From the IMG/VR virus record IMGVR_UViG_3300033402_000312: DNA of 64,000 bases; one strand, written 5' to 3'. Of the stretch, positions 4,954-53,982 are shown piece by piece; positions within the stretch are counted from its first letter, which is position 1; every line of letters begins with the position of its first letter. The notes below the pieces were generated by a model, which saw only the letters and a program-made list of their open reading frames with translations, was not told the origin of the DNA and searched no databases. The DNA is from a virus. The position numbers and the translations under genes are program-made.

Positions 4954-4978
4954 CCATATGCGGAGTGAAGGAGGAACC

Positions 4979-19260: not shown

Positions 19261-19271
19261 GGAGCGACAAA

Positions 19272-29262: not shown

Positions 29263-29442
29263 TGACAAGGGGTGTGCCTCCAAAAATGTTCTGCCTTACT
29301 AATGAGGCAGGAAGCGGCTGCATCCGATAGATACTGCGCATTCTGGGACTTGCAGAATTGCCAGTGCTCGACTCTTGACCAAACTATCCGTTTCAAGGTA
29401 GAGGAGGGCTGTCTTGGCACGCGCCGGAATTCCAACAAAACC

Positions 29443-31002: not shown

Positions 31003-31080
31003 CCGATTTTTCCGAAAAAACGTTTACAAAATCCCTAAGCAGCGGGGAAGATAAAATCCCCTAAGCAAAATAAGGGATTG

Positions 31081-34000
31081 ATGAGCTTGCTGGACAAAAA
31101 GACGGCCAAGCAGTACGAAAACGCCAGTACGCAGATCAACGTGCCCCCGGAGGTCGCCGCCGAGATCGCCCGCATAGGGAAGAAACTGATCCCGGACGGG
31201 CACCTTGCAGGCGACGGCAGAGTTGAAGTTCTGCATGTCACAATAAAGTACGGCGTGCAGCCGAACGAACACGTCCTCCAGCAAGCCTTGGCTGGGCACA
31301 AATCCTTCGAGGTTGTGCTCGGAAAGACCACGATATTCCCCGAGGCGAGCACCGAAGCCACCCCGGTGGTGATCGAAGTCCACGGTCATGAGTTCGAGGC
31401 GCTCCACGAGACAGTCGCTGCTGTCATGGGCATCCTGCCCGACGACTTCCCTTACACCCCGCACATCACCATCGCCTACGTCAAGCAAAAAGAAGCGCAG
31501 CACTACGCCGGGAAGGACGACTTTGTCGGCATCGAGTTTGTCGCCGACGCCGTAACCCTGTCCATATTCGACGACGACAACCAGGTTGACGTCCCGCTGG
31601 CGAAAGCCGCCGCAGAGGCTATCTTAGGAGGGAGAAACACAAAAGCGTGGCTTCTTCCCAACGGTAGATTCCAGACATGGGAGTTTATCGAGCATCCTTT
31701 GGTAGAACCTGAGATGTCACCCGCCATCCGTGTTGGGCGAGGTCCCTCGGGGCATGCTTACGCCCAGATAACAGAACCGCCGACTAACGCCCAGATGAGC
31801 GCCCTCGCAGACTTGGACAAGTTCGAAAAAGGATTATTCGTTGAGATCAAAGATAAAAACTCAGATACCGTGTATGAGGGCGTCCCCGTAAGGTTTTCTG
31901 AAATTCGTCATGCGGTGAACTCTGCTTTTCCCAAAACTGCCGCGTCCCCGGCTGTAATGCCCGAAATTCCCGAGGTTGTGCCGCAGGTTCCGCAGGAACA
32001 GCCTGAAGACGAGGAAGAGGTGCAGCGCGACGAGCCTGCCACGGGAGAGAAGCGGGAGGAACCGAAGCGCCAAAGGCAGCCGAAGAACAGGCTCCTCCGG
32101 CCGAAGCAGCCCAAGCAGAGGGCACCGAAACCCCCCGTCCAAACCACGAACTTCAAGAGGTGGTTCGGCAAATCCAAGGTGCGCGACGACAGCGGCAAGC
32201 CGCTGGTGGTCTACCATGGCACGACGCATGATTTCGAGGCGTTCGACCCGAGCCAGGGCAACGTGGAGAACCACTACGGCAGGGCACTGTACTTCACGTC
32301 CTCCAAGACCGACTTGGCGGAAAACTACGCGACAGAGGCGGGGCCGGACATCACCCAACGCATCGAACTGACCGCCGAGCGCATCTTCAACGACTTGCAG
32401 GAGGAGTGGGACGAGGAGCACCCCGGCGAGGAGTTCCCGCCATACAGTTCGGACGAATACCAAAAGTTAATGGAAGAAGCGAGGCAGCAGGCGAAAAAGC
32501 AAATCGCTGGGCAGAGCCAAGGCGTGAGCATGCCCGTCTACCTCAGCCTCCAGAACCCGGTCGTCGTGCAGAAGAACGGCGGCACCGGGTTCGAACTCAA
32601 CATCGACGAGGACGGCAACGAGTCCGGCAGCGCATTAACCCTGTACCACGCGATGTTGCGCGTGGCAGGAAACTATCACCATACTGATGCGCAAGAAATA
32701 TGGGTCGATCTCATCGAACATAACGGCGAGTCGTTCAATGCCTGGGATTTCGAGCGGCAAGTTCGCAACGCGGGACATTACGTTGAGGACGACGAAGGGA
32801 ACCTGGCAAGCGGCAGCTTCATCGCAGATGTTTACCGAGAGATGGGCTTCGACGGCATCATCCAAGACGCCTACGCCGAGTTTGGGGTCGGTCAATACGG
32901 CAGAATGAAGATGGAGCCGGGCACGAAGCACTACATCGTCTGGGACCCACGCAAGGTCAAGAGCGCCATCGGCAACGTGGGCAAGTTCGACCCGGCGAAC
33001 CCCAGCATCACGGCCGCGAGCAGGCAGTACCCCGCCACGGAAGAGTGGATCGGCAGGGCGAAGAAGTTCCTGAGGGAAAAGTGGGCGCAGCGCAACGACG
33101 AAATGGGGCGCGGAGAAATTCCAAGCAACCTTGAAGGCGCGTGCAAGTTCGCGTCGCTGTTCGCCAAGGAGCTTTTCGGCGGCAGGATCGTCGGCAACCC
33201 CGAACACCAAGTTGTCCAGCACGTGTACCAGATCATCGACTTGACCGACCGATACGACCCGAATACGTTCCGCCACGACAAGGAATGGTTCGGGAACCCC
33301 GAGCATCAGGAATCCATGCAGTCTTGCATGCCCCGCGTGAAACAGTGGGCAGAGGAGTTCAGGCAAAAGCACCCGCTTGAGTCCGAGACCGATGCTAAAC
33401 TCGCAAGCGACTACCACCGAAATGTCGGCTGGCTCCTGCATGACGGCAGCTTCAAGCCCCTAATCAAAGGCGAGAGCCACCGCGAGGGGGCTGTGCGCCT
33501 CGGGCTTTCAACCGACCCGCAGGACATGACCGAGGCTTTCGACAAGGGGGCCGTGCGGGTCAGCGGGAACCAGTATACGAGCCTTGAGTTCAAGATGCTG
33601 TCGCCGAACATCGCTTCCCTGCTCCTGGACTTCATCCTACAAAAACGCAGCGACGCAAAGACAATCACCTTCGACTGGTTCAGGCCGCGACGGGCAGAGC
33701 AGGAATTCAACAGCGTGGACGACGCCGTCGAGTGGCTGGACAACCCGTTCGCCGTGATGGCTTCCGCCAAATCCGCCGCTGGCTTTAACAAGCGCGTTAT
33801 CAGCATCGACGACCTTCCGGGGGAGGCGAAAGCCGACTTGGCGGCGGAGATCGCCGAGCATCTGACCGCCATCGGATTCCAGCCCCCGTGGCAGGAGAGC
33901 GGGGCGGTGGAGGCCAACGACCTGCGCCCGGAACTGTTCGACCTCGCCGACCCGCCGCTGGTCACGGTGTACGACGCCCCGGTCGAAAGCCTGCACAAGA

Positions 34001-37000
34001 CGCTAGACCGCAAGTACGACCCCGGCGACGGCGTCGTCAGGAAATACGTGGAAATGCTGAAATCCGGCGTGGAGTTCGACCCGATCTTCGTGAACAACGG
34101 CGAATTCTCGGACGGCGGGCACCGCCTCGAAGCCTACTATCGCGCCGGGCGCAAGACCATCCCGGTCGCCGAAATCGGCCCGTTCCTGAACGCCCCTGCC
34201 GAGTTCTGGCAGCGCTGGCTCTCGGGCGACGAGAATGCAAAGTTCGCAGCGTTTCCGAAGACGGCCTTGAACGTGCCCCGCCTCGTGAAGGACTTTGGGC
34301 AGAAGCTTGTTGCCCGCGCAGAGCGGGACCACTCCGCGCCTACGGTGCCCCCGCCGCGGCCGGGAGCGGAACCCGCGACGAGGGAACAGCAGGTGGAGCA
34401 GCGGGCGACGACGCTCGTCAACTCCATCGCGCAGTCCGACCCGTCCCCCAACAAGGAATACACGGCGTGGATCGTGGGCAACTACGCCAGGGGCGGCATC
34501 AACCGCTGGGAGGACATCAAGTCCCGCGCCATTCCGGCGCTCAAGCGCTTCAATACCCTGAAAATCACCAGGAAGCTGCCCCTCGAAGAGCGCGACATCA
34601 TGAAGGTCAAGGGCATGAAGGGGCTTGAAGACCTCATGGAGAAGTACAAGGAGGTCGAGGCAATCTCTGAGACCCAAAAGGAAAAGGAGGTGGAGGCGGC
34701 TTTCTTCCAGAACGGCGGCGCGGCGATGGTGCATGACGACCCCCAGATCAAAGTCGTCACCCCCAAGACCAAGGAAGCAGCTTGCTTCTTCGGCATCAAC
34801 ACGCGCTGGTGTACATCGGCGCAGAACAGCTACAACTATTTCGAGAGCTACAACAAGAAGGGTCCGCTGTACATCGTGCTCATCAAGGCGAACAACCAGC
34901 GCTTCCAATTCCATTTTGAGACCGAGTCGTACATGGACGAGCGCGACAACGCGGTCGATCCGTGGGACTTGACCTCCCAGTACCCGGTGCTCAAGAAAAT
35001 CTTCCAGCCCGTCGTTCTCGGATTCATGCGGAACAACGCGAACATCAGGGCCAGCTTCGTGGCTTTCGTTGAGAAGCCCACCACGGAGATGATGCTGGCT
35101 GCCGTGGACGAAGACCCGTCCGCCATCGACCATTTCCCGAACGCCCCGCAGGAGGTCAAGTGGAGGGCATTTTGCCGCCGAATGGGGTTCTCGGAAGAGA
35201 ATTACGACAAGAAGCTGAAGGGCTTCGTTGTCGCGGAATACGAGAACGTGGAGGAGTTCGCCGAGGAGCGGGGAAACGACACCGCGAAGTGGGCTGCCGG
35301 GATTTCGAGCGGCAAGGAAGACTGGGACTCCGATGGCTCCGGGTTCGAGGCAAGCACTGTGCTGGACGCGTGCAAGCCGACCACCATAGCCGAGATCAAC
35401 GAGTACATCAAGTTCCACCACGACGCCTCGCTCCAGCCTTGGCTCAAAGCCAACGAGGAAACATTCCCCCTCGATGCCAGCAAGATCGAGCAGTTCATGA
35501 CCGACGAAGGGCTGGACGATGTCGAGGACAAGCTCCGGTCCGGCTGGTACAGCGGCGAGGAATCGGGGGCGCAGGACGAGGTTATCGGCGCGTTCAAGAG
35601 CGCCTTGACGGACATTAACCGCAGCACCACGGAAAACGGCACGGTAATCGTCTTCGACCAGGCAAATATGTGGGACAGCAAGGTCTTGGAAATCCTGCCG
35701 CTTGCCGAAGCCGAGAACATGGTCAAGGAGAACCCCGGCGACACGGACCTATGGGACAGTTCCGACAGGTACCACGAGAACGAAATCCTCAAGGTCGAGC
35801 AGCCGTACTACGGCTTTTCCGGCTTCAGCGAGGAGGCGTGCAACGAGCGCATCTCCGAGGAGTTCTACATCTCCGACAAGGAGCGCAAGGAAAGAGCGGG
35901 GCAGCAACCGGAACTTCCCCTAGCCGCACCGGCAAAGAAAAAGCGCAGGAAAACCAAGGCGTCGCTGCTGGAAAAGCGGGGCGTGCGCGAGAAGAGCGTG
36001 GACGACCTCGGGCTGGCGAAAAAGGTCATGCGCGAGCTTATCCCCGTCCTCGGCGAGCAATTGCCGGAGCCGGAACTGAAGGTCGTGAACCAGCCGAGGG
36101 CGGGGTGGCTCGGGCGGGACACGTGGCGCGTCGGCATCCAGAATGGCAAGCCGACTTGGGGTGACAACACGACCATCGAGCTTCAGGCGTACATCCTGAA
36201 TGATGAAAACACTCTGCGCCGGATCATTGCGCACGAGCTTGCGCACCATGCCGACGCGCTGGTCAACGGCGTCGAGGAAATGAAGAAGGTCAACGACAAG
36301 TGGACGTACAAGTGGTTCTTGCGCGAGAACAGAGGCAGGGGCCACGGCATGACGTGGAAGCAGTATGCGCAGAAGTTCAACGCCAAGTACGGTGCGGACT
36401 TCGTCACTGAGAAGTCCGACGAGTCGTACGTGACGGAAGAGCAGGAATTAAGACCGTACCACATCCTGCTCAAGCGGGACTATGACGGGAAGCTCGCCTA
36501 CGAGGTTTCGTCCCGCATTTCGCCGAAGATGAAGAGAATCCTCGATAGGATGGCGAGCAACAAGGACGGCACGGAATACCGCCTCACGCAGACTAACGAC
36601 CGTGACTTCTACGAGGGGCAACTCATCAGTTCATACTACTGGAACCACCCGAAGGAGCCGGAGAAGCAGGCGAAGCTGGAAGCGCTCTGGGAGAAAGGGC
36701 AGAGGGTTCTGCCGACCGGAACGGCGAAGGAGCAAGATGAACTGGTGAGACTGTGGAACGAAGCCAAGGAGCGCAGCAAGGCGAGGGGCAAGGCGAAGGT
36801 CTCCGACGCCCACAGCGACAGAGCCAAGACCTTCCCTGACGCCGATGCTTTCTTGAAGGAGCACTACACGGGGTTTATCCCCAGCAACGCTTACGACAGC
36901 AAAGACTGGTCTATGTGGAAAAGGGAGGATTTCCCGGTCCTCCTCAAGACCTTCACTCTCAAGGACGGCACGGAAGTCGAACTCCGCAAGACAGGAGAAC

Positions 37001-40000
37001 CCAACAAGTACACGAAGGTGGACGAGAGCGGCGAAATTGTCCGCGACACAGGAGGTCTCGCAACCTACCTCTCCCCGGAGGAGGTGAAGGCGAAGGGTCT
37101 TCCCGAAACGGACACCGCGATTTTCGCCTTCATCATGGACGGGGATTGCGTAGGCCAAGCGTCTGATGAATGGGGCGCGGACGGTGTCTGGGTCGCCCCG
37201 CAAATTCAGCGTCAGGGCCTAGGCACCGAACTCCTAACCGAGCTAAGAAAGCAATTCAAACCGACCCGCCAAATGGGGCAAATGACCCCGGCTGGCAGGG
37301 AGATGGCCAAGAAGTACTACAACAATTTGTTGTTGAAAGAAGCCGCCGTGCCCCAGCTTCAGGAATTGCAGCACGGCGTGTCCAAGGACTACGACCGCGT
37401 GCGCTGGGTCTATCAGCAGTTCCTCGACAGCCGCGTCCGGTCCATGCCGTGGCAGGACTTCCAGAAGAGGTTCCCGTGGGCGCAGAACTCCCCGCTGTTC
37501 ACCGAGGTGCGCCAGAACCGCCCGAGGATCACGACCGAGGACATGGAACGCTGGATGGACGAGTACGACGCCAAAGCCAAGGAGTACCAGAACTACGAAA
37601 TCGAGCACGGCACGTACCGGGACAAGGAGACATCCTTCCGCGACGTGGAGCAGCTTGTTCTGAAAGTCAACCAGTCCGCCAGCGCGAGGGAGATCGTCGG
37701 CGAAGACCCGATGATGAAGGAGTTCCTGGGGCAGGTCGCGCAGGGCAGCGCCCAGTCCGGGCACCCTGCGGGCGAGAGCACCGTGGGCTGGCTCCGCGTG
37801 GACTTCATCGACGACGACTGGCTGCTTGTCGATGAAGTCCAATCGGACTTGATCAACGCGATGGAGCTAGGCAAGCGCTTCCTCGCCGAGCCGACGCTCG
37901 AATCGCTGATGTCCAAGTACAAGAGCGAGACCGTGAAGCAGAAAATCCGCGACATGGGGGCGACGGAGCAGACGTTCCAGATGTCCAAGCGGGAGATGGT
38001 GCGCCGGGGCTACACGGTCGAGAAGCTGGAGGAGATGAAGCGGCAGCTTGTCAACCTGTTCAAGGACTGGGCAGAGTACGGCATCGCCAGCCTGATCGAG
38101 ATCGCCCGTCGCCACGGCATCAGGAACGTGGCGATCCACACGGGCGAGACCGTCGCAAGGCGGGACCCCGACCTCGAAGCAGACAAGGCGGGCATGTACT
38201 ACGACCGGCTTGCGAAGTCCTTTGGTTTTAGGAAGCAACCGTTGGACGTTGGCGACCTCAAGGGCACCTTCTGGGTGCGCACCGCAAGCGCCAAGATGCC
38301 CAAACACCTGTACCACGGCACATCAGAATCTAACATAGCAAAAATCCTGAAAGAAGGAATAAAGATAAAGCACGTCCGGCAGGCTTCTGACGGAATCTAT
38401 CTCACAGATAATCCATCGAAAGCCGCAGAGTACAGTGATTCTTCCGAGGTTCTGAGGATTGACACAAAAGCCCTAGATTCGAACAAATTGCGGCCTGATT
38501 CCGACGACCTACAAGCCTTTTGGGAGGAGCATCTATCTGAGGCGGAGAAGGAACAATACGGGAATAGTGCCAACGTCCCGTGGCAAGCTGTAGTTCACGA
38601 TTTGACCCAGATTACCTACGTTGGGGATATTCCGCCCGAGGCTATTCAAGTCATTCGAGTAAAGACCGCAGGCAAGCGCGACGAGGACGTGGGCGACCTC
38701 AAGGGGAATTTCTGGGTGCGCACCGCGAGTAAAACCAGCCCGGTGACGTGGGAAGAAGTTAAAAAGCATATCACTAAGACTAATCCCCATGAAGGTGCCC
38801 GAGACGCTTGGGGTGGTATGAGTGTGGAACTTCCAAATCTGGCGTGGGCAAAAGAACTAATCCAACCGAACGACCCCCGTCTTGATTGGAGTAATCTACA
38901 TCCAGCGTCAAAGCGGGATATAAGGCGCTATATCAAATTCCATGAAAAGAGCGAAAACCAAGATTGGTACAGAGGTTTTCCCGCAGTCATATTGACACTG
39001 GAGAACGGTAGGCTTTTTGTGCAAGATGGGGCGCATCGCCTTGCAGCTATTCATGAATTGGGCATTCCGGTTGAGGCTTATGTGGGGAGACAACAGGAAT
39101 CAAAGCAGGCAGGCAAGCGCGACGAGGCGACGACCAGCATGACGGTCGGGACGACCGACCCGAGCTTCCCCATGCCGGTGCTGATCCGCTGGGAGCAGGG
39201 CATGCGCTGGCGTCAGGTGCTCAAGGCGGTCAAAGCGATAGTGGGCGAGATCGCCGGGCGCAGGGTGCCGTGGCGCGAAATCCACATCTGGGCCTCGCTC
39301 TGGGAGAACCAGCAGGTGCAGCAGGAGGGCTGGGCGACGGAGAGGGCGATTGGCAACCGCGTCATGTACGACATCCTGCACAACGGCAGCTTCGTGAGCG
39401 TGGGGAAGCAGGTTGCCACGGCGACGGGGGCGGAACCAGAGCCGGAGTATGTCGGAAACTGCACCGAGGACGAGGTCGTGGCGCAGTATTTCGGCGACGC
39501 CACAAGGCTCGCCCAAGCCATAGAAAACGGCGAGAAAAGGTCGGAAACCGAAGTCTTTGATCCGACCTCGAACTTGCTGATCAAGTACGACCCGGCGACG
39601 GACGTCCACTCCTTCTACAAGACTGCCGACTCGCACAAGGTCACGCCGCTCGACGAGACGTACTACAACTCGCCGGAGAGCGGCGAGGAGACCAACGCCT
39701 ACGCCGACGTACCGGAGCGCGTGCGCGGCATCTACGACGTGCCGCCTTTGAAGGAGCTTGCCCCGCAGCTTTTCGAGAAGGACGCGGCGGGCAAAAAATA
39801 TCCTTTCGCCGCAGTGAAGCGCGTCGCCGACCGATGGTTCAGGAAGAATTGGCGCACGGTGCAAAGCGGGTGGGGAGACCAAGTAAGCTACGAAGTGGGG
39901 TTCACGATCTACCTCGACCAGAACGGCAAAGTGCAGATGACGAAGCTCGCGCAGGGTGACACCGCCGAGGTGGAAATCCCCGCCCCGCCCGAGGGGTGCA

Positions 40001-42036: not shown

Positions 42037-42906
42037 ATGCAGCAAATAGACTTTACCGTACCTAAGTGTATGCTATTACATAACATCTATGTTCTTACTG
42101 ATCCTTTGGAACCCGACCATATTCGATATGTGGGATACAGCCGACACTTGCCTGAAACTCGCTTGAGGCGACATATCATTGAAGCCCGGTCGTCGCATAA
42201 GGATTCTCGCACTTACAAGAATACTTGGGTTCGTAAATTGCTTAGGGAAAATCGCATACCCACAGCGCTTTGGATTGAAGCTACTAGCGATCCTGACGAA
42301 GCTGAGAAACGCTGGATACAAAAACTCAAGGCGGAGGGACATTCCTTGACAAACGGAACAGATGGTGGGATAGGCGGACCTCCGGGTGTTCACCGGGGGC
42401 ACAAACACTCGGAGGAAACCAAGCTACGTTGGAGCCAAAAGAGGCGTGATGGTGTCAGAAAAACTTCATCCATTTTGAAAGCCGCACAATCCAATTCAGG
42501 GCAAACAAGAACCGCAGAGCAAAAAACTCGCATCAGCGAAGGAAAGCGCAAAGCGTGGGCATTGAGAAAAGAAAAAGGACTGGACGCACATAGGAGAACT
42601 TACACAATCATCTTTCCCGATGGTCATTGTGAAGAAGTGTCCTCTTTGCATGAATGGTGTACACAGAACAAGATAAGCTATGACATGATGACCCGAGTTA
42701 CCGGGGGGAAATGCGAATCCTATCACGGCTACGCCTGCGAAACCCATAACGGGGATCGAGCACAAAAGATAGCTGCCTTTATTGTGGCTAACCCAAAAAT
42801 CAGCTACAAAAAAATAGCAACACACTTTTCCACAACCAAACCGACAGTTCTGTCTGTCGTGCGCAAGTACAACTTGTATCGCAAACAGAGACAGCCAAAT
42901 GTCTAG
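42037..42906 (+). CDS. GIY-YIG homing endonuclease (Seg/I-Tev-like) with NUMOD3-like repeats
   Basis: NIYVLTDP...IRYVGYS...RLRRH (GIY-YIG). HSEETKLRWSQKRRDG and TAEQKTRISEGKRKAW (NUMOD3-like). The ATG immediately follows the giant ORF stop (TAGATG). Confidence 0.8.
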   Translation: MQQIDFTVPKCMLLHNIYVLTDPLEPDHIRYVGYSRHLPETRLRRHIIEARSSHKDSRTYKNTWVRKLLRENRIPTALWIEATSDPDEAEKRWIQKLKAEGHSLTNGTDGGIGGPPGVHRGHKHSEETKLRWSQKRRDGVRKTSSILKAAQSNSGQTRTAEQKTRISEGKRKAWALRKEKGLDAHRRTYTIIFPDGHCEEVSSLHEWCTQNKISYDMMTRVTGGKCESYHGYACETHNGDRAQKIAAFIVANPKISYKKIATHFSTTKPTVLSVVRKYNLYRKQRQPNV

Positions 42907-44383: not shown

Positions 44384-44384
44384 A

Positions 44385-47300
44385 ATGCGCTGGTATCACG
44401 GCACAAGTCGGCAGAACGCCAAAAAAGCCCTCAAGGAGGGCATTCTCAAGCCGGGGGAGGACTCCATTTATGACGTGGACGTCCCGCGAGATGATGCCGT
44501 ATACATAACTTCGGAATACCAAATCGCCAAATACTACGCTGAAGAGCATAGTTGGCAGGGCAAAGGCGGCGTGGTCTTGGAGGTTGCCGCCAACGAAGGC
44601 AGCTTGATGCCTGACGAGGACGCAATTTACGACGCCCTGCATGAGGGCGCTGTGGTGCTGGGCGAGAAAAGCAGCAAAAAGCTGGGGCAGGCGATCCGCA
44701 AGGCATGGCTGAGGCACTGGAAGTCCATCGAAGGCGAAGGCGACACGTTCGAAGAGGCATGGGAAGCGTGGGGGAATGTGGAAGCCGAGGGTTCGTCGGG
44801 GATCGCCGAAGAGATGAAGGAACTGACTGAGGAAATCCATAGGGAGAACCCGGCTCTGTCCAAGGCTATCATCGAAGCCAGCGGCAAAGCTGCGCACATC
44901 GGGCCGGTGAAGGTCATGGGCATCGCCAAGAAGCAAACCGCAAAACCGGACCTGTCAAACGATCAAGAGCCTCTGGAGGCGGCGCGGCAAATGCTTGCGG
45001 AGCTTGGCGGAAACGAGAAACTCTGCGGAAAAAGCAAAGTCGTGCATGGGTATTGGATCGAGACCCACACGCTGGGATGCCGCAACGCCGCAGACGAGCC
45101 GGAAAGCGAGTGGGAAGCCAACCACAAGCGCATCAGGGACGAATACGCCAACGACGGCGTCAGTATCGTCCTGGACGACAAGAATTCCAGCAACTTCGCG
45201 ACGGTGACCCCGCAGTCCAAGACCGCAGCCAAGAAGGTCAGGGTCGTCAAGACTCCGGGCTTCATGATCGAAGTGCCGCAGGAACGTCGCAAGACGTTTT
45301 TCATCCGCCCGAAGACCCCGCTGGAGTACTGGGCTTTCAAGAACCGCCCCCGCGTCTTCGTGAACGAGCCGCTTATCTTCACGTTCGGCGGAAAGCCCGT
45401 GGCGGAAGCTGTAGCCGTGAGGGTCGAGGCCCCCGGTCGCGGCGAGGGCGAGTACAGGCACTGGCACAAGGTGTACTGGAAGCCCACGAGCTTCAAGAGG
45501 TTCCGTATAACTGCGTCTGAGCGACCCGGAGTGTTGTACCACATCAGCCGCCGCACCAACCGCCAGTCCATCCTGAAGAACGGACTGCTGCCGTTGCTCA
45601 AAGAGTACAAGGATGTAGAGCGTGCGCCGGGAATCTATTTCTTCCAGAGCATCGACGCCGCGAAGGACTACGGCTTCTACCACGCGCAGCATGTCAACCA
45701 AGCTCTCGACATCTGGGAATGCCGCATCCCCGAAGGCTACGAGGTGCGCCATGACCCGCACCCGGAGATGGACGAGTTCGATGCGTGGATGAGCCATGAG
45801 CCGCTGCCCCCGGAAAACCTGAAAGTCGTGGACACGATCCTCGTGCCGAAGTCCACTGCCGACGCGCCTCCTCCCTACAAGAGCCAACGCGGCGACAAAT
45901 TCAAGAGAATGTATGAAGAGCGAGTCCGGGAATTTGCTTACCGGGGCAAAGGTGCTGCTGGGAAACCAGTTCCATGGAAGTCCGACCTGCTGCGCTGGGA
46001 CAGGCTCACCGCGTGGGAAGACAGGAACACCGCGAACGACGATGCCGAGTACACATCCGAGGAGATCGAGGAGAAGTACAGACTCGCGCCGCCCAGCGAG
46101 ACGCGCAGGGGCGTCAACGCCGCGCTGCTCAAGTCCGCCAAGGCTAATTTCCCGACCTTCGAGCAGGTGATCGACAAAAAGACCGACACGAACAACGAGT
46201 TCGAGATTGACATGTGGAAGGGCGAGGAACTGGGAAACAGGCGCAAAGAGTACGACGAGTTGCTCCGGCAAATGAAGGCGCTGAAGTTCCCGCTCACGGT
46301 GTACCGCTGCTTCGCGCTCAAAGAGGGCGAAAAGATCGACTACAGCAGCCTCGGCGGCTCGTGGTCTCTCAACAGCCGGGCAGCGTACTTGGTTTCCCAC
46401 GAACTGTTTCCCGACGACGAGGGCTACGACTACAAGACCGTCGCGGGCACCATCCAAAGCCCGGATGCCGTGGACTGGCTCAACACCATGCGTGCCTGGC
46501 TGACCTTGCCGGACGAGGAGGAGATCAGGCTGAAGCCCGGCGCGAAAGTCGGGGTCCGGGGGAAGACCCGCACCGCAACCGGCAAAAAATTCTATCACGG
46601 TACGAAAAAGAAGAACCTTGACGACATCCTGAAAAACGGTTTGAAGGTCGAGATGTCCGAGGCGCACACCGAATGGGGCAGGGCAATCTACCTAGCGTGC
46701 GATGCCTACACCGCCGCGAACTACGAGGGCATGCACGGAGGCGGCGAGCCGTGGGCGATCCTTGAGATCGACGGCAGTAAGCTGAACGAATACTACATGC
46801 GCCCGGACGACTACGACTTCCCCGACCTCTGGGAACAAGCAGGGCGCAAGGAGAACTGGGCGCACCAGACATGGCAGACGAGCCTCAAGGTGTCGTGCCA
46901 GATCGCCTATCTCGCCGACATCCCGGCAAGCGCCATCAAGGTGCATCCGTACAAAAAGAACAATGTTCCGGCAAAAAATACGCAAAAAGAGTTTCTCGAC
47001 AGCCACACCGTGGAGCAGGTCGCGGAGCACTTCGGCATCACGCCCGCAGCCGCAGCCAAGGCGAAATCCGAGGGCATAGTGAAGAAAGCCGATATGACCG
47101 AAGACCCCGACTACTACATGACAGAAGGCTGCGGCATCTGGGCGGTGGACTTCGCCCGGAAGAACGGCGGGGAGATATACATCCTGTCGGCGGAGCGCGG
47201 CGAGGAGTGGAGCGAGGAAATCCCGTACGAGGTCACGCACGCCTTCGTGAAGAAGGACGGCAGGACCTACGACGTCCGGGGCGAGCGGACGCCCGACAAG

Positions 47301-50300
47301 ATGGCCTGGGAGCTAAGCATGGGCGAGTACACCGTCAAGGGGCCGTGGACGCCCGACGAGTTCGAGGCCAAGTTCATGGGCAGCACCGACGATAAGCCGC
47401 TGTTCGGCAAGGAGAGTGCCAAGACCGCGACGATGCCCCCTCGCGGGCGGTTTATGTGGCACGTTACCCCAATGCGTAACGTACCCTCGATCAAAAAGAA
47501 CGGGCTGATTCCGCAAGTGGGCGAACGCAGCGCCGAAGGGGGCGAGAAGCCAGGCATCTTCCTCTTTCCGACAAAGCAAGGAGTAGAGGATGCCCTTACT
47601 GGATGGCTCGGCGAATCCTTTGAGAACACTCCCGAGGAACTGGCTATCGTTGAAGTAGCTGTGCCAGAAGATGTTCAAATGGAGGATTCCACTGATTACA
47701 CCACTCAGTTCGAAGTGGTCATCCGTCAGCCGTTGCCAGCGAACTACATCCGCAGGATATACACGGAAAAAGAGTTCGAAGACCACCTTGCCCGAATTGC
47801 CTCCAAGACCGCCGACAAGGTCATCGGCGTGGGCGAAGGGGACGAGTACTGGGCGGGAGAGGGCAACGCCGCGTCCGGCGTGCTGCCCGTGTGCCCGAGC
47901 AAGGGCACGGTGTGCCTCGCGTGGAGAAGCCCCTATGTCATGAGTCCCGACTGCTGGGGCACCATCGGCGGGGCGGTCAAGAAAGGCATGAGTCCGCAGC
48001 AGAGCGCGAAGACCGAGATGGCGGAGGAGACGGGGTACCACGGCGGGATCAGGCTGATTCCCGCGTACACTTTCTTGGATCGCGGCTTCAAGTATTTCAA
48101 CTTCGTCGGCGTGGTGCCGAACGAGTTCCCGTTCAGCCCCGGCGAAGGGCACGGCTGGGAGACCGACCACATCGCGTGGGTGCCCTACGAGCAGGTCGTC
48201 AAGGACATGCAGGAGAACCCCGGCGACTACCATCCCGGCTTGCTCAAGCTGTTCGCCAACTCCAAGGACGCCATCGAGCGAGCGCTGAAGATCAAAAAGC
48301 AAGGAGCCATTAAGACTGCCTCTATTGATACCAACGGTTGGATCACCCCCGATGGAGACTGGGAACCGCTGGAAGACGGAGAAACTCATGTCAACGCAAT
48401 CCAACGCCTGCTAAATCGCGACGATGTTTTTGAAAAAGATGGATTGAAAGAAGGATATATCCGAGTTCATTACCAGGATTACGTGCCCGGTCAACCCATC
48501 GAAGCCTACTTTCTTTGCGAAAAACGCACGTCACACAATTTTGCCTTGGTCAGGGAAGCGATCCATGATTTGCCGTCTCAGACTAAGCAAGTAGCGGTCG
48601 TGTTCAAACATCCCGAAGATTATCAAACATACACGTTTGAGGAGGCACTGGAGGATTTCCCCCGCCGTGCTGTTTTCGCGGCCGAGAAGCAAAGCGCCAT
48701 CGTGAGACGCGGCGCGTTCGACCCGTTATGGATGAAGCGCTGGGTCGAGGGCGGCTGCTGGCTGTTTGCGCTGGCTTTGCAGCCTCTCATCCCCGGCTCG
48801 GTGTTCGTCGGTCTCGCTAGAGAAGGCGAAGTCCTTGAGCACGTCGGCGTGCGCAAGGGTGACAGGTACTACGACGTGCGCGGGGAGATGGACGAGACCG
48901 AGTTCAACTACGGAGCCGACTCCGAGGTTCCTCTCCATATCGTGCCCGTGGACTACGAGCAGGTGATGAGGGACGGGGAGTACGGAAGCTGGCTCGGGCA
49001 CGAGGACGAGTTCGAGACCCTGCCGGAGATGCAGGCGGCTAAGGAAGCTGTGCAGAAAGTATTCGGCAAGGGCAAGACCGCAGAAGTCAACCCAACAGCC
49101 CCACCGCCAAGTTCCAGCCGCCTCCCGTGCCCCAGCGGCAAGCGCAAGTTCTACGACGAAGTGTCGGCAATCGGCCCCCACAAGCAGTGGAGCAAGGGCA
49201 CGCCGAACCTCCGCGCCTACAAGTGCCCGATATGCGGCTGGTGGCACCTGACGAGCAAGCCGCAAAGAGTGACGGCGAACCTCCATGGGATGGGGACGTT
49301 CTATCACGGGACATCATGGGCAGAGGCAGACCAAATCAAGGTCGAGGGCCTCAAAGCCCACCCATGGGCTTTCAACGACAAATCGTACGTCTGGTGTACG
49401 CTGATCGAGCAGCTTGGCATCAGCTATGGGGAATCCAAAACGGAGAATAGCTCAGAACCCGGATACGTCGTAAGCTTCGAATGGGATTACGACCAAACGG
49501 AACCCGACCCCGAGCATGGGGAAGAGTATGAGGACGTATATCGTCGCATCGAGGGCGACGTGCCAGCCTCCGCCATCACCGGCATCAACTATTACGCCCC
49601 GGATCACAGGCTTGTGAAGACAGCAGCCGGGCAGAAGCAGGCGGATGCCGCCTTGAACGACTTCTTGGCAGGCAGGATTTCCAAGGAAGAGTACAAGGCG
49701 ATGCTCTCAGGGGAAAGCCAGCCGGAGCAGGCACCGCAGCAACAGCACTTGTTCCCGTCTTCGCAAGACGCAAAGTTCAAAGCTTGGTTCGACGGCTCGA
49801 AGGTCGTGGACAAGAACGGGAACCCGATGCCTGTGTACCACGGCACGCGCTCATCCGTGGAATTCGAGGAGTTCAGCGTCGAGGGCCCGCCACAAACAGA
49901 TTCATACGAAAATGAAACCACGTCTTCCGGCTCCGGTGCAGACCCGACCGCGTTCCTCGGCGCTCACTTCGCTGAGGAAACAAACGTCGCCAACCTGTTT
50001 GCCGAGGGCAAGGGCTGGACGGGCGTCCGCTACGAGGGGGAGCAGCCCAAGCCCCGCGTGATACAGGTTTTCCTGCGGATCACGAATCCGAAGGACTTCG
50101 GCAGCGAGCACAACCTGCGCGAGTTCATTAACCAAGGCAAAATCGCCGACGATGAGGTGACCAATCTCGTTATGGAAAATCGTGACGGGATTAACTATTG
50201 GGAGCCAGAGCAAGAACAAGCGGCGCAGGAGTGGGGTGAAAAGTATGAGAACGATCAAGCCTTCCGCACTGAAGTCAACCGTTACCTGTGGGAGCAGCAT

Positions 50301-53300
50301 AGCACGGGATCAGAATACGAAGGTGAACAGGACAGGTTAAATTCCGCTGCCTACGATCTCGCTATGCAGGCACGGAATCGTCTGACCACCGCTGGTTATG
50401 ATGGGGTTCGCTATAAGAACGTGGTCGAGGGCGGTCACGCATGGATCGCGTTCGCGGCGAACCAGATCAAGAGCGTCTATTCCCAGTTCAACCCGAAAGA
50501 CCCAAGCTTCACCGCTTCCAAAGACGCAGCAACCCATACGCCAGAATATGCGCAGAAACTTGTGGAAGCGCTGAAGCAGACCGTCACGGACGCAGACTTC
50601 CGGGTTATCGGCTCCGTGGGAGCCGGGCAAGAATCCGAGAACGACATTGACATCATGGTGGACATTCGCCCGGATGCCGCCTTTAAGGACGATCAAGCTT
50701 GGATCGACACCAGCGGCCTGACCGGGGCGATGAAGCTGCTGGGCTTCGACTACCTCGGGCCGTCCGATTTCGCACCGGGGGAAAGCGCGGAGAAGTCCGA
50801 GGCGAGCGGCAAATACCTCGACCCGGCAGGCTCCGGCGTCGAGAAGTTCTTCAACCCGACGACATACCACACGGTCGAGTTCTGGTTCACCGAGTCCGGC
50901 ATGCCGAAGGAAGCGGATTGGAGGAGCAAGTACGTGCTGCCGACAGCCCTTGCGTTGGGTCTCGGCGCTCCGTCCAGCGTGCACCCCGACGAAGTGACTC
51001 CGCAGCAAATCGAGCAGGTGCGCGAGGAGCAGGCGAAAAAGCGGATCGACGCCCTCGTCGAGGCGATCTCCCGCGCCGAGGGCGCTAAGCCGGAACTCAA
51101 CAACCCCGGCAACCTCGTGGACTTCAACACGGGCAAGATCAGGACGTTCGATTCGTGGGAAGAGGGCCGCAACGCGTTGGCTGAGCAGCTTGAGCGCATC
51201 GCTGACGGCGACCACCCGAACATCAAGCCCGACATGACGCTGCGCGAAGCCGGGCTGGTCTACAGCAACGGCGACCCGAACTGGGCGAAAAACGTCTCGC
51301 GCATCATGCGCGTGCCGGAAACCATAAAGATGCAAGAACTCGTCCGTGGACGCACGGAAGAGGCGGGCGTGGCTGCGACGCCTTCCGGCAAGATAGGATG
51401 GCTCAGGAAGGCTGCGGGCTTCGCGTTCAAGTCCTTCAAGAAGCTCTGGCACGTCGGCAGCATGAACCCCAAGGACAAGCGGCCCGGCTCGCTGGAGGGC
51501 GTCGGTCTCAGCGTGAGCGTACATCCCGAGGAGTGGAAAGGGATCGCGGAGATCGGCGGCCCGACATGGGAACTGACCAAGCCGGGCAACAAATTCCTGA
51601 ACTTCTACCGCCTCAGCAAGACGCAGCGCAAGCAGATCGCCGTGTGGGGCGTCGCGAACGGCTATGCCACCGAGGTCGCCATCGGCTGGCGCTGGTATTT
51701 CACGGACGCCGAGACCGACGAAGAGCGCTACATGGAGTTCGAGACCGAGCAGGAAGCCCAAGAGGAGATGGAAGGTCAAGGCATAGGCGAGGTGCGCCCG
51801 GCGAAAGGCTCCAGCATGAAGGGCACGGAAAAGCTCAAGCAGCGCACCAAGAACCCGAAGGCGGACGATATGGTCGTCGCCTTCGACTTGCTTGTCACCG
51901 TGTATGCCGAGGATGAGCTTGACTGCGACGGCGTCTGGTGGGAAGACATCTTCGATCCCGCCTCCCTGTCCGCGCCTCGCGGCGTAATATTCCCTGGAAA
52001 ATTGTCATCATGGAAAAAGAAGAAGGTCGAAGAAGTAGATGACGAAGGTGCTGCACCGATCAATAGGGAAATCGATATGCTGGAGCAGGAGATCAAAAAA
52101 CACGGCGACCCCACCGGAATGCTGACTGATCACCTGAAAATGCTCAAGCAGAAAAAGTCCGGCGCAGCGAAGACCGCAGCTAGGCTTGCTGCCTACGACC
52201 CAGCCCGTGCCGCGCAATTTTCTGTTAGGGTTATCAAACATCCCACCAACCCCAACATGTTTGATGTGCGAGCCGTGGACGTAGGTAAGGGGTGGGCGGG
52301 GACGGTTTCCGTTACACAGAAAGGCAAGGATTTCTATGTCACTCAGTCTGTGCTTTACAAGCCCTACCAAGGCATTGGTTTGGGGTCCCGCTTGTACGCC
52401 TGGGCGATGGATGAGGCCGAAAAGCGGGGCGGTGAACGTTTTTGGTCTGACGTAGAAGTCAGCTTGGACGCTCAAAAGATTTGGGAACGGTTGGACGCCG
52501 GTTTTGATGAAGAAAGCGGGAGATTTTTTATCCCGTTGATGGCCACGGTCAAAACCGCAACCGCAGAGTTCTTCCGGGACTCGAACGGGGTGCTGTGGGC
52601 GAAAGACCCCGCGCTGTCGCCGAACCCCGTCTCCATCCCCAACCGAATCCCTGAGGGCGAGCGCGAAGCCTACGTCGCCGAAAAGCTGAGGCAGCAGGGC
52701 GAGATGGACGCTGCCCTTAAAACTGAACGGGCGAAAAAGAACCCGGCGAAAAAGAACCCGTGGCAAGAGTGGAACCACGGGCTTGGTACAGTTGACCCAA
52801 CGGAGGTCGTCAAGAAGCTCGAAGCGGAAGGCAAGGAAGTCAAGGTGCGGCTCATCCCCTTGGGCTATTACAAGATTTGGTTCAGGGACAAGACCGCAGC
52901 GAAACCCAAGCCCAGCCCGACGCAGGTCGCCGCGCTGCAAGGCATGGCTGCGGGCGACGGCACCATTCACCGGGAGAAGGGCGGCTTCTGGATTTGGGGC
53001 GACTACATCGTCGGTTGGGACAGTCTTGGATTGCCTATCTTCAAAGGCGAGGAGGAAGGCAGGCATCTTGAGCCGCGCCCGTGGGTTGACATCCGCACCG
53101 TGCGGGCGATGGAGTCTCGCGGCTGGGTGAAGCGCACGAACAAATTTCCTGAAGAGTGGAGAGATAACCGTAAAATAACGGACGCTGGGCGTGCGCTCAT
53201 CGCAGGCAAGACTGCCGATCTTGACGAGGATGATGACATTTATGACCAGCCTGTTGAGTACTTTGCCCACAGTGCGTGTTGGCTTTACGCCTTCGCGCTG

Positions 53301-53981
53301 CACAAACTCACAGGGCTGCCGATGGTATCAATCTCTGATCCCCACGAAGGTGTTATTCATGCCGCCGTCGAGCGTGAAGGAAAGCTTCTGGACTCTAAGG
53401 GCGAATTCACGCTTAAGCAAATCGGAAAACGCTATGGGCTGAAAAACCCGTTCACTCTTCCGTTGACCGAAGAAGGTGTGGAGTATTTTTACGGCATCAA
53501 CGAGCACGAGCTTGAACGGGCGATGGAAGTTGCCCGCGAGCAGGTCAAAAAGCTGGGCATTAAGACCGCAGCGGCAGAAATCTACCTGTACCACGGCACC
53601 TCGGAAGACAACTGGAACGCGATCATGGAAGCCGGGGGTGTGGTTCCCGCTGGAAGCTGCTGGGGCACCGAGCGGGTAGCCGAATACTACGCAGAGGACC
53701 GCGCTGAGGCGCAGACGAACGACGCCATCTACAACGAATTGGGCACGCGGGTTGAGGAGGCTATCATCCGCGTCCCGCTTTCGCGGTTCGACGAGACGAA
53801 CCTCAAGCCGGACGGCAACTCCGTCGCGGAGCCGTTGACTTTCACCTTGCAGCGTAGCGAAGAAGACCTTTATGCTGACTGGCAGAAAGCCGGGGGCACA
53901 TGGCAGGATTCGCTCCGCATCTACGAATCCGTGCGCTACGACGCGCCCATGAAAGTCACCAAAAAAGACCGCTACGTATAG
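44385..53981 (+). CDS. giant polyvalent multidomain protein 2 (about 3,198 aa)
   Basis: Start MRWYHGTS one codon after the previous stop. Seven YHGT-type ART/Tpt1-like modules. Three Cys/His modules (GCGIWAVDFA, GGCWLFALAL, SACWLYAFAL). Nudix (WGTIGGAVKKGMSPQQSAKTEMAEETGY). MNT nucleotidyltransferase (GSVGAGQESENDIDIMV). Possible GH73-like (AEGAKPELNNPGNLVDF). GNAT (QGIGLGSRLYAW). Confidence 0.85.
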   Translation: MRWYHGTSRQNAKKALKEGILKPGEDSIYDVDVPRDDAVYITSEYQIAKYYAEEHSWQGKGGVVLEVAANEGSLMPDEDAIYDALHEGAVVLGEKSSKKLGQAIRKAWLRHWKSIEGEGDTFEEAWEAWGNVEAEGSSGIAEEMKELTEEIHRENPALSKAIIEASGKAAHIGPVKVMGIAKKQTAKPDLSNDQEPLEAARQMLAELGGNEKLCGKSKVVHGYWIETHTLGCRNAADEPESEWEANHKRIRDEYANDGVSIVLDDKNSSNFATVTPQSKTAAKKVRVVKTPGFMIEVPQERRKTFFIRPKTPLEYWAFKNRPRVFVNEPLIFTFGGKPVAEAVAVRVEAPGRGEGEYRHWHKVYWKPTSFKRFRITASERPGVLYHISRRTNRQSILKNGLLPLLKEYKDVERAPGIYFFQSIDAAKDYGFYHAQHVNQALDIWECRIPEGYEVRHDPHPEMDEFDAWMSHEPLPPENLKVVDTILVPKSTADAPPPYKSQRGDKFKRMYEERVREFAYRGKGAAGKPVPWKSDLLRWDRLTAWEDRNTANDDAEYTSEEIEEKYRLAPPSETRRGVNAALLKSAKANFPTFEQVIDKKTDTNNEFEIDMWKGEELGNRRKEYDELLRQMKALKFPLTVYRCFALKEGEKIDYSSLGGSWSLNSRAAYLVSHELFPDDEGYDYKTVAGTIQSPDAVDWLNTMRAWLTLPDEEEIRLKPGAKVGVRGKTRTATGKKFYHGTKKKNLDDILKNGLKVEMSEAHTEWGRAIYLACDAYTAANYEGMHGGGEPWAILEIDGSKLNEYYMRPDDYDFPDLWEQAGRKENWAHQTWQTSLKVSCQIAYLADIPASAIKVHPYKKNNVPAKNTQKEFLDSHTVEQVAEHFGITPAAAAKAKSEGIVKKADMTEDPDYYMTEGCGIWAVDFARKNGGEIYILSAERGEEWSEEIPYEVTHAFVKKDGRTYDVRGERTPDKMAWELSMGEYTVKGPWTPDEFEAKFMGSTDDKPLFGKESAKTATMPPRGRFMWHVTPMRNVPSIKKNGLIPQVGERSAEGGEKPGIFLFPTKQGVEDALTGWLGESFENTPEELAIVEVAVPEDVQMEDSTDYTTQFEVVIRQPLPANYIRRIYTEKEFEDHLARIASKTADKVIGVGEGDEYWAGEGNAASGVLPVCPSKGTVCLAWRSPYVMSPDCWGTIGGAVKKGMSPQQSAKTEMAEETGYHGGIRLIPAYTFLDRGFKYFNFVGVVPNEFPFSPGEGHGWETDHIAWVPYEQVVKDMQENPGDYHPGLLKLFANSKDAIERALKIKKQGAIKTASIDTNGWITPDGDWEPLEDGETHVNAIQRLLNRDDVFEKDGLKEGYIRVHYQDYVPGQPIEAYFLCEKRTSHNFALVREAIHDLPSQTKQVAVVFKHPEDYQTYTFEEALEDFPRRAVFAAEKQSAIVRRGAFDPLWMKRWVEGGCWLFALALQPLIPGSVFVGLAREGEVLEHVGVRKGDRYYDVRGEMDETEFNYGADSEVPLHIVPVDYEQVMRDGEYGSWLGHEDEFETLPEMQAAKEAVQKVFGKGKTAEVNPTAPPPSSSRLPCPSGKRKFYDEVSAIGPHKQWSKGTPNLRAYKCPICGWWHLTSKPQRVTANLHGMGTFYHGTSWAEADQIKVEGLKAHPWAFNDKSYVWCTLIEQLGISYGESKTENSSEPGYVVSFEWDYDQTEPDPEHGEEYEDVYRRIEGDVPASAITGINYYAPDHRLVKTAAGQKQADAALNDFLAGRISKEEYKAMLSGESQPEQAPQQQHLFPSSQDAKFKAWFDGSKVVDKNGNPMPVYHGTRSSVEFEEFSVEGPPQTDSYENETTSSGSGADPTAFLGAHFAEETNVANLFAEGKGWTGVRYEGEQPKPRVIQVFLRITNPKDFGSEHNLREFINQGKIADDEVTNLVMENRDGINYWEPEQEQAAQEWGEKYENDQAFRTEVNRYLWEQHSTGSEYEGEQDRLNSAAYDLAMQARNRLTTAGYDGVRYKNVVEGGHAWIAFAANQIKSVYSQFNPKDPSFTASKDAATHTPEYAQKLVEALKQTVTDADFRVIGSVGAGQESENDIDIMVDIRPDAAFKDDQAWIDTSGLTGAMKLLGFDYLGPSDFAPGESAEKSEASGKYLDPAGSGVEKFFNPTTYHTVEFWFTESGMPKEADWRSKYVLPTALALGLGAPSSVHPDEVTPQQIEQVREEQAKKRIDALVEAISRAEGAKPELNNPGNLVDFNTGKIRTFDSWEEGRNALAEQLERIADGDHPNIKPDMTLREAGLVYSNGDPNWAKNVSRIMRVPETIKMQELVRGRTEEAGVAATPSGKIGWLRKAAGFAFKSFKKLWHVGSMNPKDKRPGSLEGVGLSVSVHPEEWKGIAEIGGPTWELTKPGNKFLNFYRLSKTQRKQIAVWGVANGYATEVAIGWRWYFTDAETDEERYMEFETEQEAQEEMEGQGIGEVRPAKGSSMKGTEKLKQRTKNPKADDMVVAFDLLVTVYAEDELDCDGVWWEDIFDPASLSAPRGVIFPGKLSSWKKKKVEEVDDEGAAPINREIDMLEQEIKKHGDPTGMLTDHLKMLKQKKSGAAKTAARLAAYDPARAAQFSVRVIKHPTNPNMFDVRAVDVGKGWAGTVSVTQKGKDFYVTQSVLYKPYQGIGLGSRLYAWAMDEAEKRGGERFWSDVEVSLDAQKIWERLDAGFDEESGRFFIPLMATVKTATAEFFRDSNGVLWAKDPALSPNPVSIPNRIPEGEREAYVAEKLRQQGEMDAALKTERAKKNPAKKNPWQEWNHGLGTVDPTEVVKKLEAEGKEVKVRLIPLGYYKIWFRDKTAAKPKPSPTQVAALQGMAAGDGTIHREKGGFWIWGDYIVGWDSLGLPIFKGEEEGRHLEPRPWVDIRTVRAMESRGWVKRTNKFPEEWRDNRKITDAGRALIAGKTADLDEDDDIYDQPVEYFAHSACWLYAFALHKLTGLPMVSISDPHEGVIHAAVEREGKLLDSKGEFTLKQIGKRYGLKNPFTLPLTEEGVEYFYGINEHELERAMEVAREQVKKLGIKTAAAEIYLYHGTSEDNWNAIMEAGGVVPAGSCWGTERVAEYYAEDRAEAQTNDAIYNELGTRVEEAIIRVPLSRFDETNLKPDGNSVAEPLTFTLQRSEEDLYADWQKAGGTWQDSLRIYESVRYDAPMKVTKKDRYV

Positions 53982-53982
53982 G

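Follow-up and report, generated by a model that had tools for sequence, protein, structure and literature searches.

The stretch of DNA analysed here, referred to as the window, comprises 64,000 nucleotides of the IMG/VR virus record IMGVR_UViG_3300033402_000312, and it contains two giant open reading frames (ORFs) that encode chains of enzymatic modules. ORF1 (31081..42036, + strand, with the frame open from 31078) encodes a polyvalent protein of 3,651 amino acids (aa), and ORF2 (44385..53981, +) encodes one of 3,198 aa. As an earlier note on this DNA had stated, the genes lying between them are a free-standing homing endonuclease gene of the GIY-YIG type (42037..42906, +; 289 aa; PF01541, 25.8 bits against a cutoff of 22.6), which sits at a module border, and a gene for a 494-aa protein (42899..44383, +). 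The adjacent gene upstream of ORF1 encodes a 576-aa polyvalent-type protein with InPase and RelA/SpoT domains (29272..31002, +; Pfam InPase, PF18823, 95 bits; RelA_SpoT, 50 bits), and with it begins a same-strand effector block of 24.7 kb (29272-53981) that ends at ORF2, beyond which the genes are convergent. The best overall explanation, and in our judgement a likely one, is that this is a one-strand phage block devoted to polyvalent effectors, built of cassettes joined by a K-T-A linker motif, in which ORF1 has been split by the endonuclease gene.

The extreme length of the ORFs, their mosaic GC content at third codon positions (GC3) and their many unassigned stretches might suggest assembly chimeras or decaying pseudogene arrays, but this is so improbable that it can practically be set aside. 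There are zero stops across the 6,849 codons of the ORF1 and ORF2 translations, GC3 is 0.53-0.93 in frame from end to end of both ORFs with codon position 2 at about 0.40, and ORFs in other frames of the locus, whose DNA is 57-60% GC, are no longer than 570 aa. Separate contigs, obtained from different samples and by different assemblers, match with 100% identity and without gaps, JGI 3300034091 over window positions 44202-56055 and ENA ERZ27256985 over 34385-63981. The public gene calls in the JGI and ENA assemblies give the exact 3,198-aa ORF2 product, and the ENA call gives the identical 3,651-aa ORF1 product. Conservation at the protein level also runs along both ORFs in a syntenic 169.6-kb IMG/VR contig (L001/L004, hereafter L001), which shares the region corresponding to 29950-57990. 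Two giant uninterrupted ORFs, as first described, are upheld by the absence of internal stops, by frame-specific GC3 and by identical independent contigs. The ORF1 ATG at 31081 is preceded by AAGGGA, a Shine-Dalgarno-like sequence; the ORF2 frame is open from 44283 and its start is assigned to the ATG at 44385, one base past the stop of the 494-aa gene. Promoter and terminator scans returned numbers at or below the shuffle expectation. Immediately 5' of the ORF1 start, within 31028-31079, there is a repeat, AAAATCCCTAAGCA / AAATCCCCTAAGCA, and AAAATCCCTAAGCA is not enriched elsewhere in the window; a hairpin with a 9-bp stem (31055-31079) overlaps the ribosome-binding region.

The modules were assigned with Pfam, for which the proteins were searched entire and both giants also as 450-aa pieces that overlap; PHROGs searches of the 450-aa pieces added little, and phmmer of both giants against PDB sequences gave nothing useful. 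All modules described below are on the + strand. ORF1, which K[STQ]A motifs delimit into 10 segments, carries near its N terminus a 2H phosphoesterase (31144..31572; aa 22-164), for which the HVTI and HITI motifs read earlier are backed by a 2_5_RNA_ligase2 match (E 3e-12); it is weakly Acb1-like (Acb1 E 3e-4, under the cutoff). There follow an ART-PolyVal ADP-ribosyltransferase (ART) with YHGT at residue 378 (32185..32640; aa 369 to ~520; PF18760, 75.4 bits against a cutoff of 31.2) and ParB-like module 1, with DGGHR at residue 1011 (33769..34257; aa 897-1059). An uncharacterised domain with a helical extension (34258..35595; aa 1060-1505) has NTRWCTA and YQFH motifs and is not present in L001. 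It has neither a Pfam model nor a PDB fold match, and it is found in 5,846 representative clusters at E<=1e-3, either stand-alone or within other giants; jumbo phages and giant viruses have proteins of related fold, and one of these, in phage PA5oct, is labelled 'structural protein'.

Further along ORF1, the HExxH motif of the earlier reading is literally present as HELAH in a SprT-like zincin (36145..36387; aa 1689-1769), but the profile match is below the Pfam cutoff (PF10263, E 4e-5, 23.9 bits against 25.6). Two GNAT acetyltransferases (37066..37320, aa 1996-2080, by Pfam; and 40249..40527, aa 3057-3149, Acetyltransf_1 40 bits) lie on either side of a PARP/Tpt1-type ART (38284..38445; aa 2402-2455; PARP E 2e-7; YHGT at 2411 and GIY at 2438), a paralogue of ORF2 aa 728-853 (33% identity by self-BLAST), and of ParB-like cassette 2 (DGAHR; 38662..39105; aa 2528-2675). 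The weak JAMM-like feature (39892..40059; aa 2938-2993) possesses the motif HTHSGEGGGELSPWD but not the profile support (DUF4329 E 0.002, below cutoff); its spacing is x8, whereas the canonical JAMM/MPN+ motif HxHx7Sx2D has x7, and searches of the region against PDB sequences gave spurious matches only. The C-terminal module of ORF1 (41563..42033; aa 3495-3651) is without an L001 counterpart in a global alignment of the junction. At the other end of the protein (window 31081-31110), the N-terminal MSLLDKK is kept in ORF1, in L001 giant 1 (from L001 position 1482) and in a distant giant (P0014), the first enzyme module being different (2H or ART); its last K is the start of the first K-T-A in ORF1 and L001, and the peptide may be a leader or targeting signal.

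ORF2, delimited into 13 segments by K[ST]A, opens with an ART-like module (MRWYHGTS; 44385..45218; aa 1-278; ART-PolyVal E 0.01, phrog_13493 E 2e-6) and closes with another (KTAAAEIYLYHGT; 53562..53978; aa 3060-3198; PARP E 0.03-0.055, phrog_13493 E 7e-4), both falling in a single PHROG family (phrog_13493). Between them are a PARP-like ART (YHIS...GIY; 45519..45707; aa 379-441; PARP E 1.7e-5), a PARP/Tpt1-type ART (46578..46724; aa 732-780; PARP E 9e-9, 57 bits in the whole-protein scan), an ART-PolyVal (49809..50480; aa 1809-2032; 66.4 bits, cutoff 31.2) and a weak ART-like match near aa 1640. The PARP/Tpt1-type modules proposed before are well founded, with YHGT occurring seven times alongside GIY, and with three PARP profile matches in addition to ART-PolyVal twice. 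The Nudix hydrolase (47871..48215; aa 1163-1277; 54% identical to Tunturiibacter phage Tunturi_5) is supported by profile (NUDIX E 4e-10, 40 bits against a cutoff of 21.1), but its box is not the consensus one: G-x5-M-x7-TE-x2-EE-x-GY differs from GX5EX7REUXEEXGU in the change of the first E to M and of RE to TE, with EExGY retained, and the activity of the module is uncertain. The minimal nucleotidyltransferase-like GS...DIDI motif (GSVGAGQESENDIDI; 50556..50678; aa 2058-2098) is present, and is also carried by a related ORF (P0019), but its profile match is under the cutoff (NTP_transf_2 E 0.095, 13.5 bits against 21). The AEG...NNPGN segment (51027..51374; aa 2215-2330) is probably the region previously read as a GH73-like peptidoglycan hydrolase, a reading that we reject: ORF2 aa 2099-2595 has zero Pfam hits at E<=10, and AEG...NNPGN has zero PDB sequence hits. 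The segment follows a hydrophobic stretch, YVLPTALALGLGAPSSV (window 51000-51030; aa ~2190-2210), that is kept in another relative (P0005) and could be the one part of a soluble chain that inserts into a membrane. Four small cassettes of 127, 113, 106 and 118 aa (52170..53561; aa 2596-3059), with KTA at both ends, precede the C-terminal module; the first is a GNAT (Pfam match at aa 2637-2702), all four are missing from L001, and homology to L001 picks up exactly at the start of the C-terminal module.

The 494-aa protein is homologous to aa 2263-2838 of L001 giant 1 and consists of an inferred GIY-YIG-like part, a GNAT (aa 179-328, by Pfam) and a ParB/Srx-fold module. The AlphaFold2 model is confident at aa 375-494 only (predicted local distance difference test, pLDDT, 77-92), and the top 12 Foldseek hits of this C terminus in the PDB are all ParB, sulfiredoxin or KorB (probability 0.87-1.0, E 0.03-0.2), so that its DGNHR motif stands on a ParB/Srx-type predicted fold. 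The ParB-like modules give no Pfam ParBc or DdrB-ParB match even at E<=10; hhalign nevertheless ties the two DGxHR modules of ORF1 to the 494-aa ParB-fold module, with 83.5% probability for cassette 2 (E 8e-6) and 51% for module 1 (E 1.5e-4). The two ParB-like motifs of the earlier reading, DGGHR and DGAHR, are therefore present and joined by a third, with support from profile-profile comparison and not from Pfam. The N-terminal 115 residues (42899-43243), directly after the endonuclease gene, read YLLHFD...HYLG...FERRLKSQGGLSRHCPIC with GC3 0.54, and the public gene call of this protein begins at M113, giving 382 aa. This part looks GIY-YIG-like by its motifs and by a predicted beta-beta-alpha-alpha-beta-alpha order; a profile search of aa 1-115 found no match.

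Altogether the locus holds about 26 modules: five well-supported and three weaker ARTs, four GNATs, three ParB-like modules, a 2H phosphoesterase, a Nudix hydrolase, a zincin and at least eight that are unassigned. The four GNATs, each found by profile, agree with the three or four anticipated. It is very likely that the locus proteins are phage-type polyvalent effectors, because ART-PolyVal, the hallmark domain, is well above cutoff in both giants and InPase and RelA/SpoT domains are present in the adjacent gene. Disparate activities are combined in one chain, 2H, ART, zincin, GNAT and PARP-type ART in ORF1 and ARTs, Nudix and GNAT in ORF2, and the set fits the published phage-type repertoire, which includes 2H, ART, GNAT, ParB-like, zincin and InPase with RelA/SpoT (Iyer et al. 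2017, PMC5512222). The polyvalent interpretation offered in the earlier note is in this respect correct. Its suggestion that the domain combination may not have been described goes too far, since all of the confident domain types and the mosaic shuffling of modules are already published (PMC5512222). The proteins are unusually large in that they exceed the 2-15 domains quoted in 2017 for polyvalent proteins, but PHROG profiles of 2,600-4,650 positions exist for such proteins. The domain repertoire is not new; it is the size and the ART load that are at the upper end of the known class. Like the phage-type polyvalent proteins exemplified by P1 DarB/DdrB, these are long, phage-encoded multi-enzyme chains with mosaic modules. 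They differ in having more modules (10 and 13 delimited segments, plus three detached), eight ART-like modules in one locus and a recurrent K-T-A linker, and in lacking structural, MuF and portal domains as well as late-gene surroundings. Another difference is that the ParB-like modules miss the DdrB-ParB Pfam model. The zincin-like hub domain of polyvalent proteins may be represented by the SprT-like match in ORF1, below cutoff at 23.9 bits against 25.6; ORF2 has none.

Every one of these proteins is shown by the comparisons to be a chain of enzyme cassettes that evolve independently. The homology blocks vary from 45% to 87% identity and their order is changed; one block of L001 giant 2 matches ORF1, which amounts to a move from ORF1 to giant 2. 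GC3 per cassette varies from 0.51 to 0.89, and P0019 unites in a single ORF modules corresponding to those of ORF1, of ORF2 and of the 494-aa protein. In tblastn searches, hits to ORF2 were limited to single modules, megablast of ORF1 against 50,697 phage records gave zero matches, a search of IMG/VR with the ORF1 C terminus gave nothing, and nothing was found in two metagenome scans. The cassettes have evidently been gained, lost and moved between genes at K-[T/S]-A linkers. Three indels are flanked by the motif. One is an additional GNAT-like module of L001, another is ParB-like cassette 2 of ORF1, and the third is the set of four small ORF2 cassettes, which extends from the KTA at 2596 to the KTA at 3060. 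ParB-like cassette 2 is specific to the window, with GC3 0.51, and is flanked by KTAGKRDE and KQAGKRDE; at the same position L001 has just ...RTASEKTAGKRDE....

K-T-A is the most over-represented of the 8,000 tripeptides, ranking above YHG, with 20 occurrences across ORF1, ORF2 and the 494-aa protein where 2.34 are expected (Poisson 1e-12). Per 1,000 shuffles, the observed count was reached in 0 for ORF2, 4 for ORF1 and 1 for the 494-aa protein, and the density is 2.72 per 1,000 aa in the locus versus 0.41 in the other ORFs of the window (9,798 aa). The 9-nt K-[T/S]-A sites start at 31099, 31933, 32959, 33769, 34258, 35596, 38662, 39619 and 41299 in ORF1 and at 45219, 46131, 47421, 47805, 48312, 49074, 49617, 52170, 52551, 52890, 53208 and 53562 in ORF2, and the K-T-A sites of the 494-aa protein start at 43244, 43997 and 44009 (all +). 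Six of the nine ORF1 sites lie within 10 aa of the edge of a homology block (p 1.5e-4), as do 6/7 and 6/9 of the sites in the L001 giants. Seven of the 12 sites that can be aligned with L001 retain K[ST]A, in some cases with T and S exchanged, and the tripeptide that ranks first in the ORF1-like giant P0014, as in L001 giant 2, is TAA. The segments delimited in ORF2 mostly contain at most one recognised domain, the exception being 1745-2595 with three assignments. Only the three sites in the 494-aa protein have been modelled; they are in low-confidence stretches (pLDDT below 40) just before the folded ParB-like domain, and these linker stretches are probably disordered. Third codon positions at the motif vary, and therefore selection acts at the protein level; we accordingly rejected K-T-A as a DNA-level signal. 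Processing of polyvalent proteins has been predicted, with neither a linker nor a cleavage motif described (Iyer et al. 2017, PMC5512222). What is new here is the presence of K-T-A at module borders, together with a homing endonuclease gene that splits ORF1. The motif also appears outside the locus in a ClpX/ClpB-like AAA+ ATPase (22061-23278, +), the N terminus of which contains KSAVKTA; no protease domain was found near it.

The split of ORF1 can be followed by comparison with its relatives. The ORF1 stop codon TAG adjoins the ATG of the endonuclease gene, the stop of the endonuclease gene overlaps the ATG of the 494-aa gene, and the GC3 of the endonuclease gene (0.45-0.47) contrasts with about 0.77-0.8 in the flanks. 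The GIY-YIG gene is missing at the same site in L001, where the ORF is continuous and the C-terminal 576 aa of giant 1 are the homologue of the 494-aa protein (55-73% identity). In a third source (P0006), a single ORF is collinear with ORF1 aa 2687-3480 and then with the ParB-like module of the 494-aa protein. Because they are fused without the GIY-YIG gene in L001 and collinear in P0006, ORF1 and the 494-aa protein were formerly one gene, and there is a strong case, from these gene arrangements, that the endonuclease gene separated ORF1 from its last three modules, which now make up the 494-aa protein. The break would have been tolerated because the modules work independently. ORF2 is set off from the 494-aa protein by a gene border that recurs in L001, where the giants are 2,839 and 2,652 aa long and overlap as TAGTG, and therefore a single gene spanning both giants is not supported. 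The ancestral mega-gene envisaged in the earlier note is consequently correct for ORF1 and the 494-aa protein; ORF1 and ORF2 are separate genes in both genomes. We also considered P0007 as a sign of a past fusion of the 494-aa protein with ORF2 and rejected it, since its ART module differs from the N-terminal module of ORF2.

A comparable case is the nrdA gene of Aeromonas phage Aeh1, which is split by mobE, a free-standing homing endonuclease gene (PMC3045599). In both, an endonuclease gene lies inside what is a single ORF in relatives, with tight stop/start junctions; in contrast to Aeh1, the break is here between autonomous modules and the halves need no reassembly, and whereas mobE is of the HNH type, the window endonuclease is GIY-YIG and a putative homing enzyme. 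A gene encoding Endonuclease VII with a helix-turn-helix domain (53983..54693, -; Endonuclease_7 E 2e-16; low GC) is convergent on the end of ORF2, and in L001 the interval from ORF2 to the following shared gene contains no counterpart of it; this gene resembles a further homing-endonuclease-like insertion, the second at the locus. In a distant 243.8-kb contig (L002), a GIY-YIG gene (4786-5424) also lies between large genes (1,542 and 661 aa), which are non-homologous to those of the window, and this arrangement is upstream of a homologue of the ORF1 aa 1060-1505 domain.

The element that carries the locus is a large uncultivated phage, an assignment made because rIIB lies upstream, the syntenic contig is in IMG/VR and the RNA ligase resembles those of jumbo phages. 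The genes for rIIB and Ku are directly upstream of the window on the same contig. The RNA ligase is part of a 336-aa fusion with an HNH endonuclease (14963-15973, +) that is about 50% identical in several jumbo phages, and jumbo phages provide its best matches. The other neighbours in the window are an exonuclease, a methylase, the ClpX-like ATPase, ligases, a glycosyltransferase and an SNF2 helicase. Stretches of about 240 nt at 18759-18995 and 19271-19498 are 78% identical and correspond to tandem paralogous small genes. Public listings of proteins identical to ORF2 and the RNA ligase give 894,233 bp as the length of the longest contig; a 97-kb contig also carries the exact ORF2. If wholly viral, to our knowledge the 894-kb contig would top every reported phage genome.

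Polymorphic or MARTX-like toxins on a cellular or plasmid replicon are a rival reading, favoured by the chains of ART, GNAT and peptidase domains known in bacterial toxins and by the 894-kb length of one recorded contig. MARTX toxins and viral polyproteins are effector-domain arrays that are released by site-specific proteolysis at inter-domain linkers, and in being effector arrays in a single chain they are like the present proteins. However, MARTX proteins are toxins that bacteria secrete, marked by repeat regions and by a cysteine protease domain, and polyproteins belong to RNA viruses, and these defining parts are missing here. Secretion, repeat, RHS and immunity features were absent from all Pfam scans of the giants, no relative was found among 185,579 bacterial and archaeal genomes, the relative that does exist is an IMG/VR viral contig, and the neighbours (rIIB, homing endonucleases, RNA and DNA ligases) are phage-like. 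We consider a bacterial toxin origin very improbable.

What the proteins would do can be proposed from their families. The effector enzymes would act at the start of infection, as suggested by the family as a whole (Iyer et al. 2017). The ARTs and GNATs would modify host proteins or nucleic acids, the 2H, Nudix and InPase-RelA/SpoT enzymes would destroy or make signalling nucleotides, and the ParB-like modules would nick DNA or hydrolyse nucleoside triphosphates; by the same reasoning the proteins would probably be carried in the virion. To this we add that a protease would cut the chains at K-T-A into single enzymes, the candidates being a prohead protease or the SprT-like zincin of ORF1, a candidate in-cis processing peptidase. 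The comparison with relatives indicates, in addition, that the GIY-YIG gene came to rest between modules and cut ORF1 off from its final three. A giant-phage prohead protease, SPN3US gp245, cuts head proteins at a three-residue motif (PMC10052503). On this model the proteins would resemble T4 Alt and internal proteins and the ejection proteins of phiKZ and SPN3US, in which enzymes are delivered with the DNA and a protease reads a three-residue motif. Those, by contrast, are separate small to medium proteins, mostly with one N-terminal propeptide and a motif that ends in Glu, whereas packaging and cleavage are here predicted.

A number of observations weigh against this picture, and those concerning packaging come from the surroundings of the locus. 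No structural genes occur within 25 kb either side, the upstream genes look early (rIIB and many small ORFs), no structural, portal or MuF domain was found in the locus, and the late-gene context typical of phage polyvalent proteins is absent. Virion packaging remains an inference because the neighbours are DNA-metabolism and early-type genes, and by analogy with the family it is about an even call. The same surroundings, and the lack of a MuF, portal or capsid-targeting domain, would suit proteins that are unpackaged and made early in the cell, as polyproteins or giant enzymes in the manner of RNA viruses. We think this rather unlikely. The proteins from which the ART-PolyVal and InPase families were defined are inferred to be virion-borne, and the InPase-RelA/SpoT gene, which is syntenic in L001, has PHROG hits to segments of giant proteins and to DarB-like, virion or minor head proteins, including PHROGs whose annotation is minor head or virion structural protein. 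The PA5oct fold relative is annotated 'structural protein', and a distant homologue in another contig (L003) follows baseplate-like genes. Jumbo-phage gene order is in any case scattered, which also counts against unpackaged proteins.

The remaining points of difficulty concern cleavage. About half of the residues of the giant proteins are without an assigned function, and ORF1 has a 1,022-aa run with three domains and no K[ST]A. The motif is loose, the other five of the 12 aligned sites being KAA, KKA, KNG, AKF or LES in L001, and K-T-A is enriched only about 2-fold over 158 more distant proteins, for which reason we discarded the idea of a universal K-T-A code for all polyvalent proteins. 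No protease that reads K-T-A was identified: the zincin is below the Pfam cutoff, and ORF2 is without a peptidase. Conservation of a linker could have other causes than cleavage. The main rival reading is that the giants act intact and that K-T-A is a preferred flexible linker or a cassette-exchange scar, in which in-frame junctions outlast recombination, perhaps with the help of AAGACSGC microhomology, and not a protease site. The occurrence of indels and rearrangements exactly at the motif, its degeneracy between relatives and weakness in the wider family, and the lack of a matching protease all favour this alternative, as does the transfer of N4 virion RNA polymerase and of plasmid polyvalent proteins unprocessed (PMC5512222). 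Conversely, the third codon positions are not conserved, making a DNA-level signal unlikely, a generic linker has no need of one tripeptide 20 times with T/S swaps, and 350-400-kDa folded chains passing through a tail channel are hard to picture without processing or unfolding. We rate the intact giants as a serious contender, with chances only a little short of even, and K-T-A as a proteolytic processing site as a tentative proposal, slightly less favoured than that. The most far-reaching version, which we put forward as speculative and rather doubtful, is a polyprotein strategy of a dsDNA phage, in which about 26 single-enzyme effectors encoded by two genes would be freed through site-specific cleavage at K-T-A linkers (x-T-A-A family-wide) that are also points of cassette exchange among genes and genomes, and in which the MSLLDKK-KTA leader would mark the chains for packaging.

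Polyvalent proteins are thought to be the first strike of a phage on host defences, and almost none have been studied experimentally. The locus described here is an extreme example, with 7,919 codons over four effector genes and eight ART-like modules, and the syntenic relative with its different cassettes provides natural comparison material. The K-T-A borders define about 26 single domains that can be expressed, at least eight of them without a known family, and give exact positions at which the predicted processing can be examined. The endonuclease insertion indicates that genes of this kind tolerate breakage at module borders. If it is true, K-T-A cleavage would be the first concrete cleavage code for polyvalent proteins, the processing of which has been predicted since 2017.

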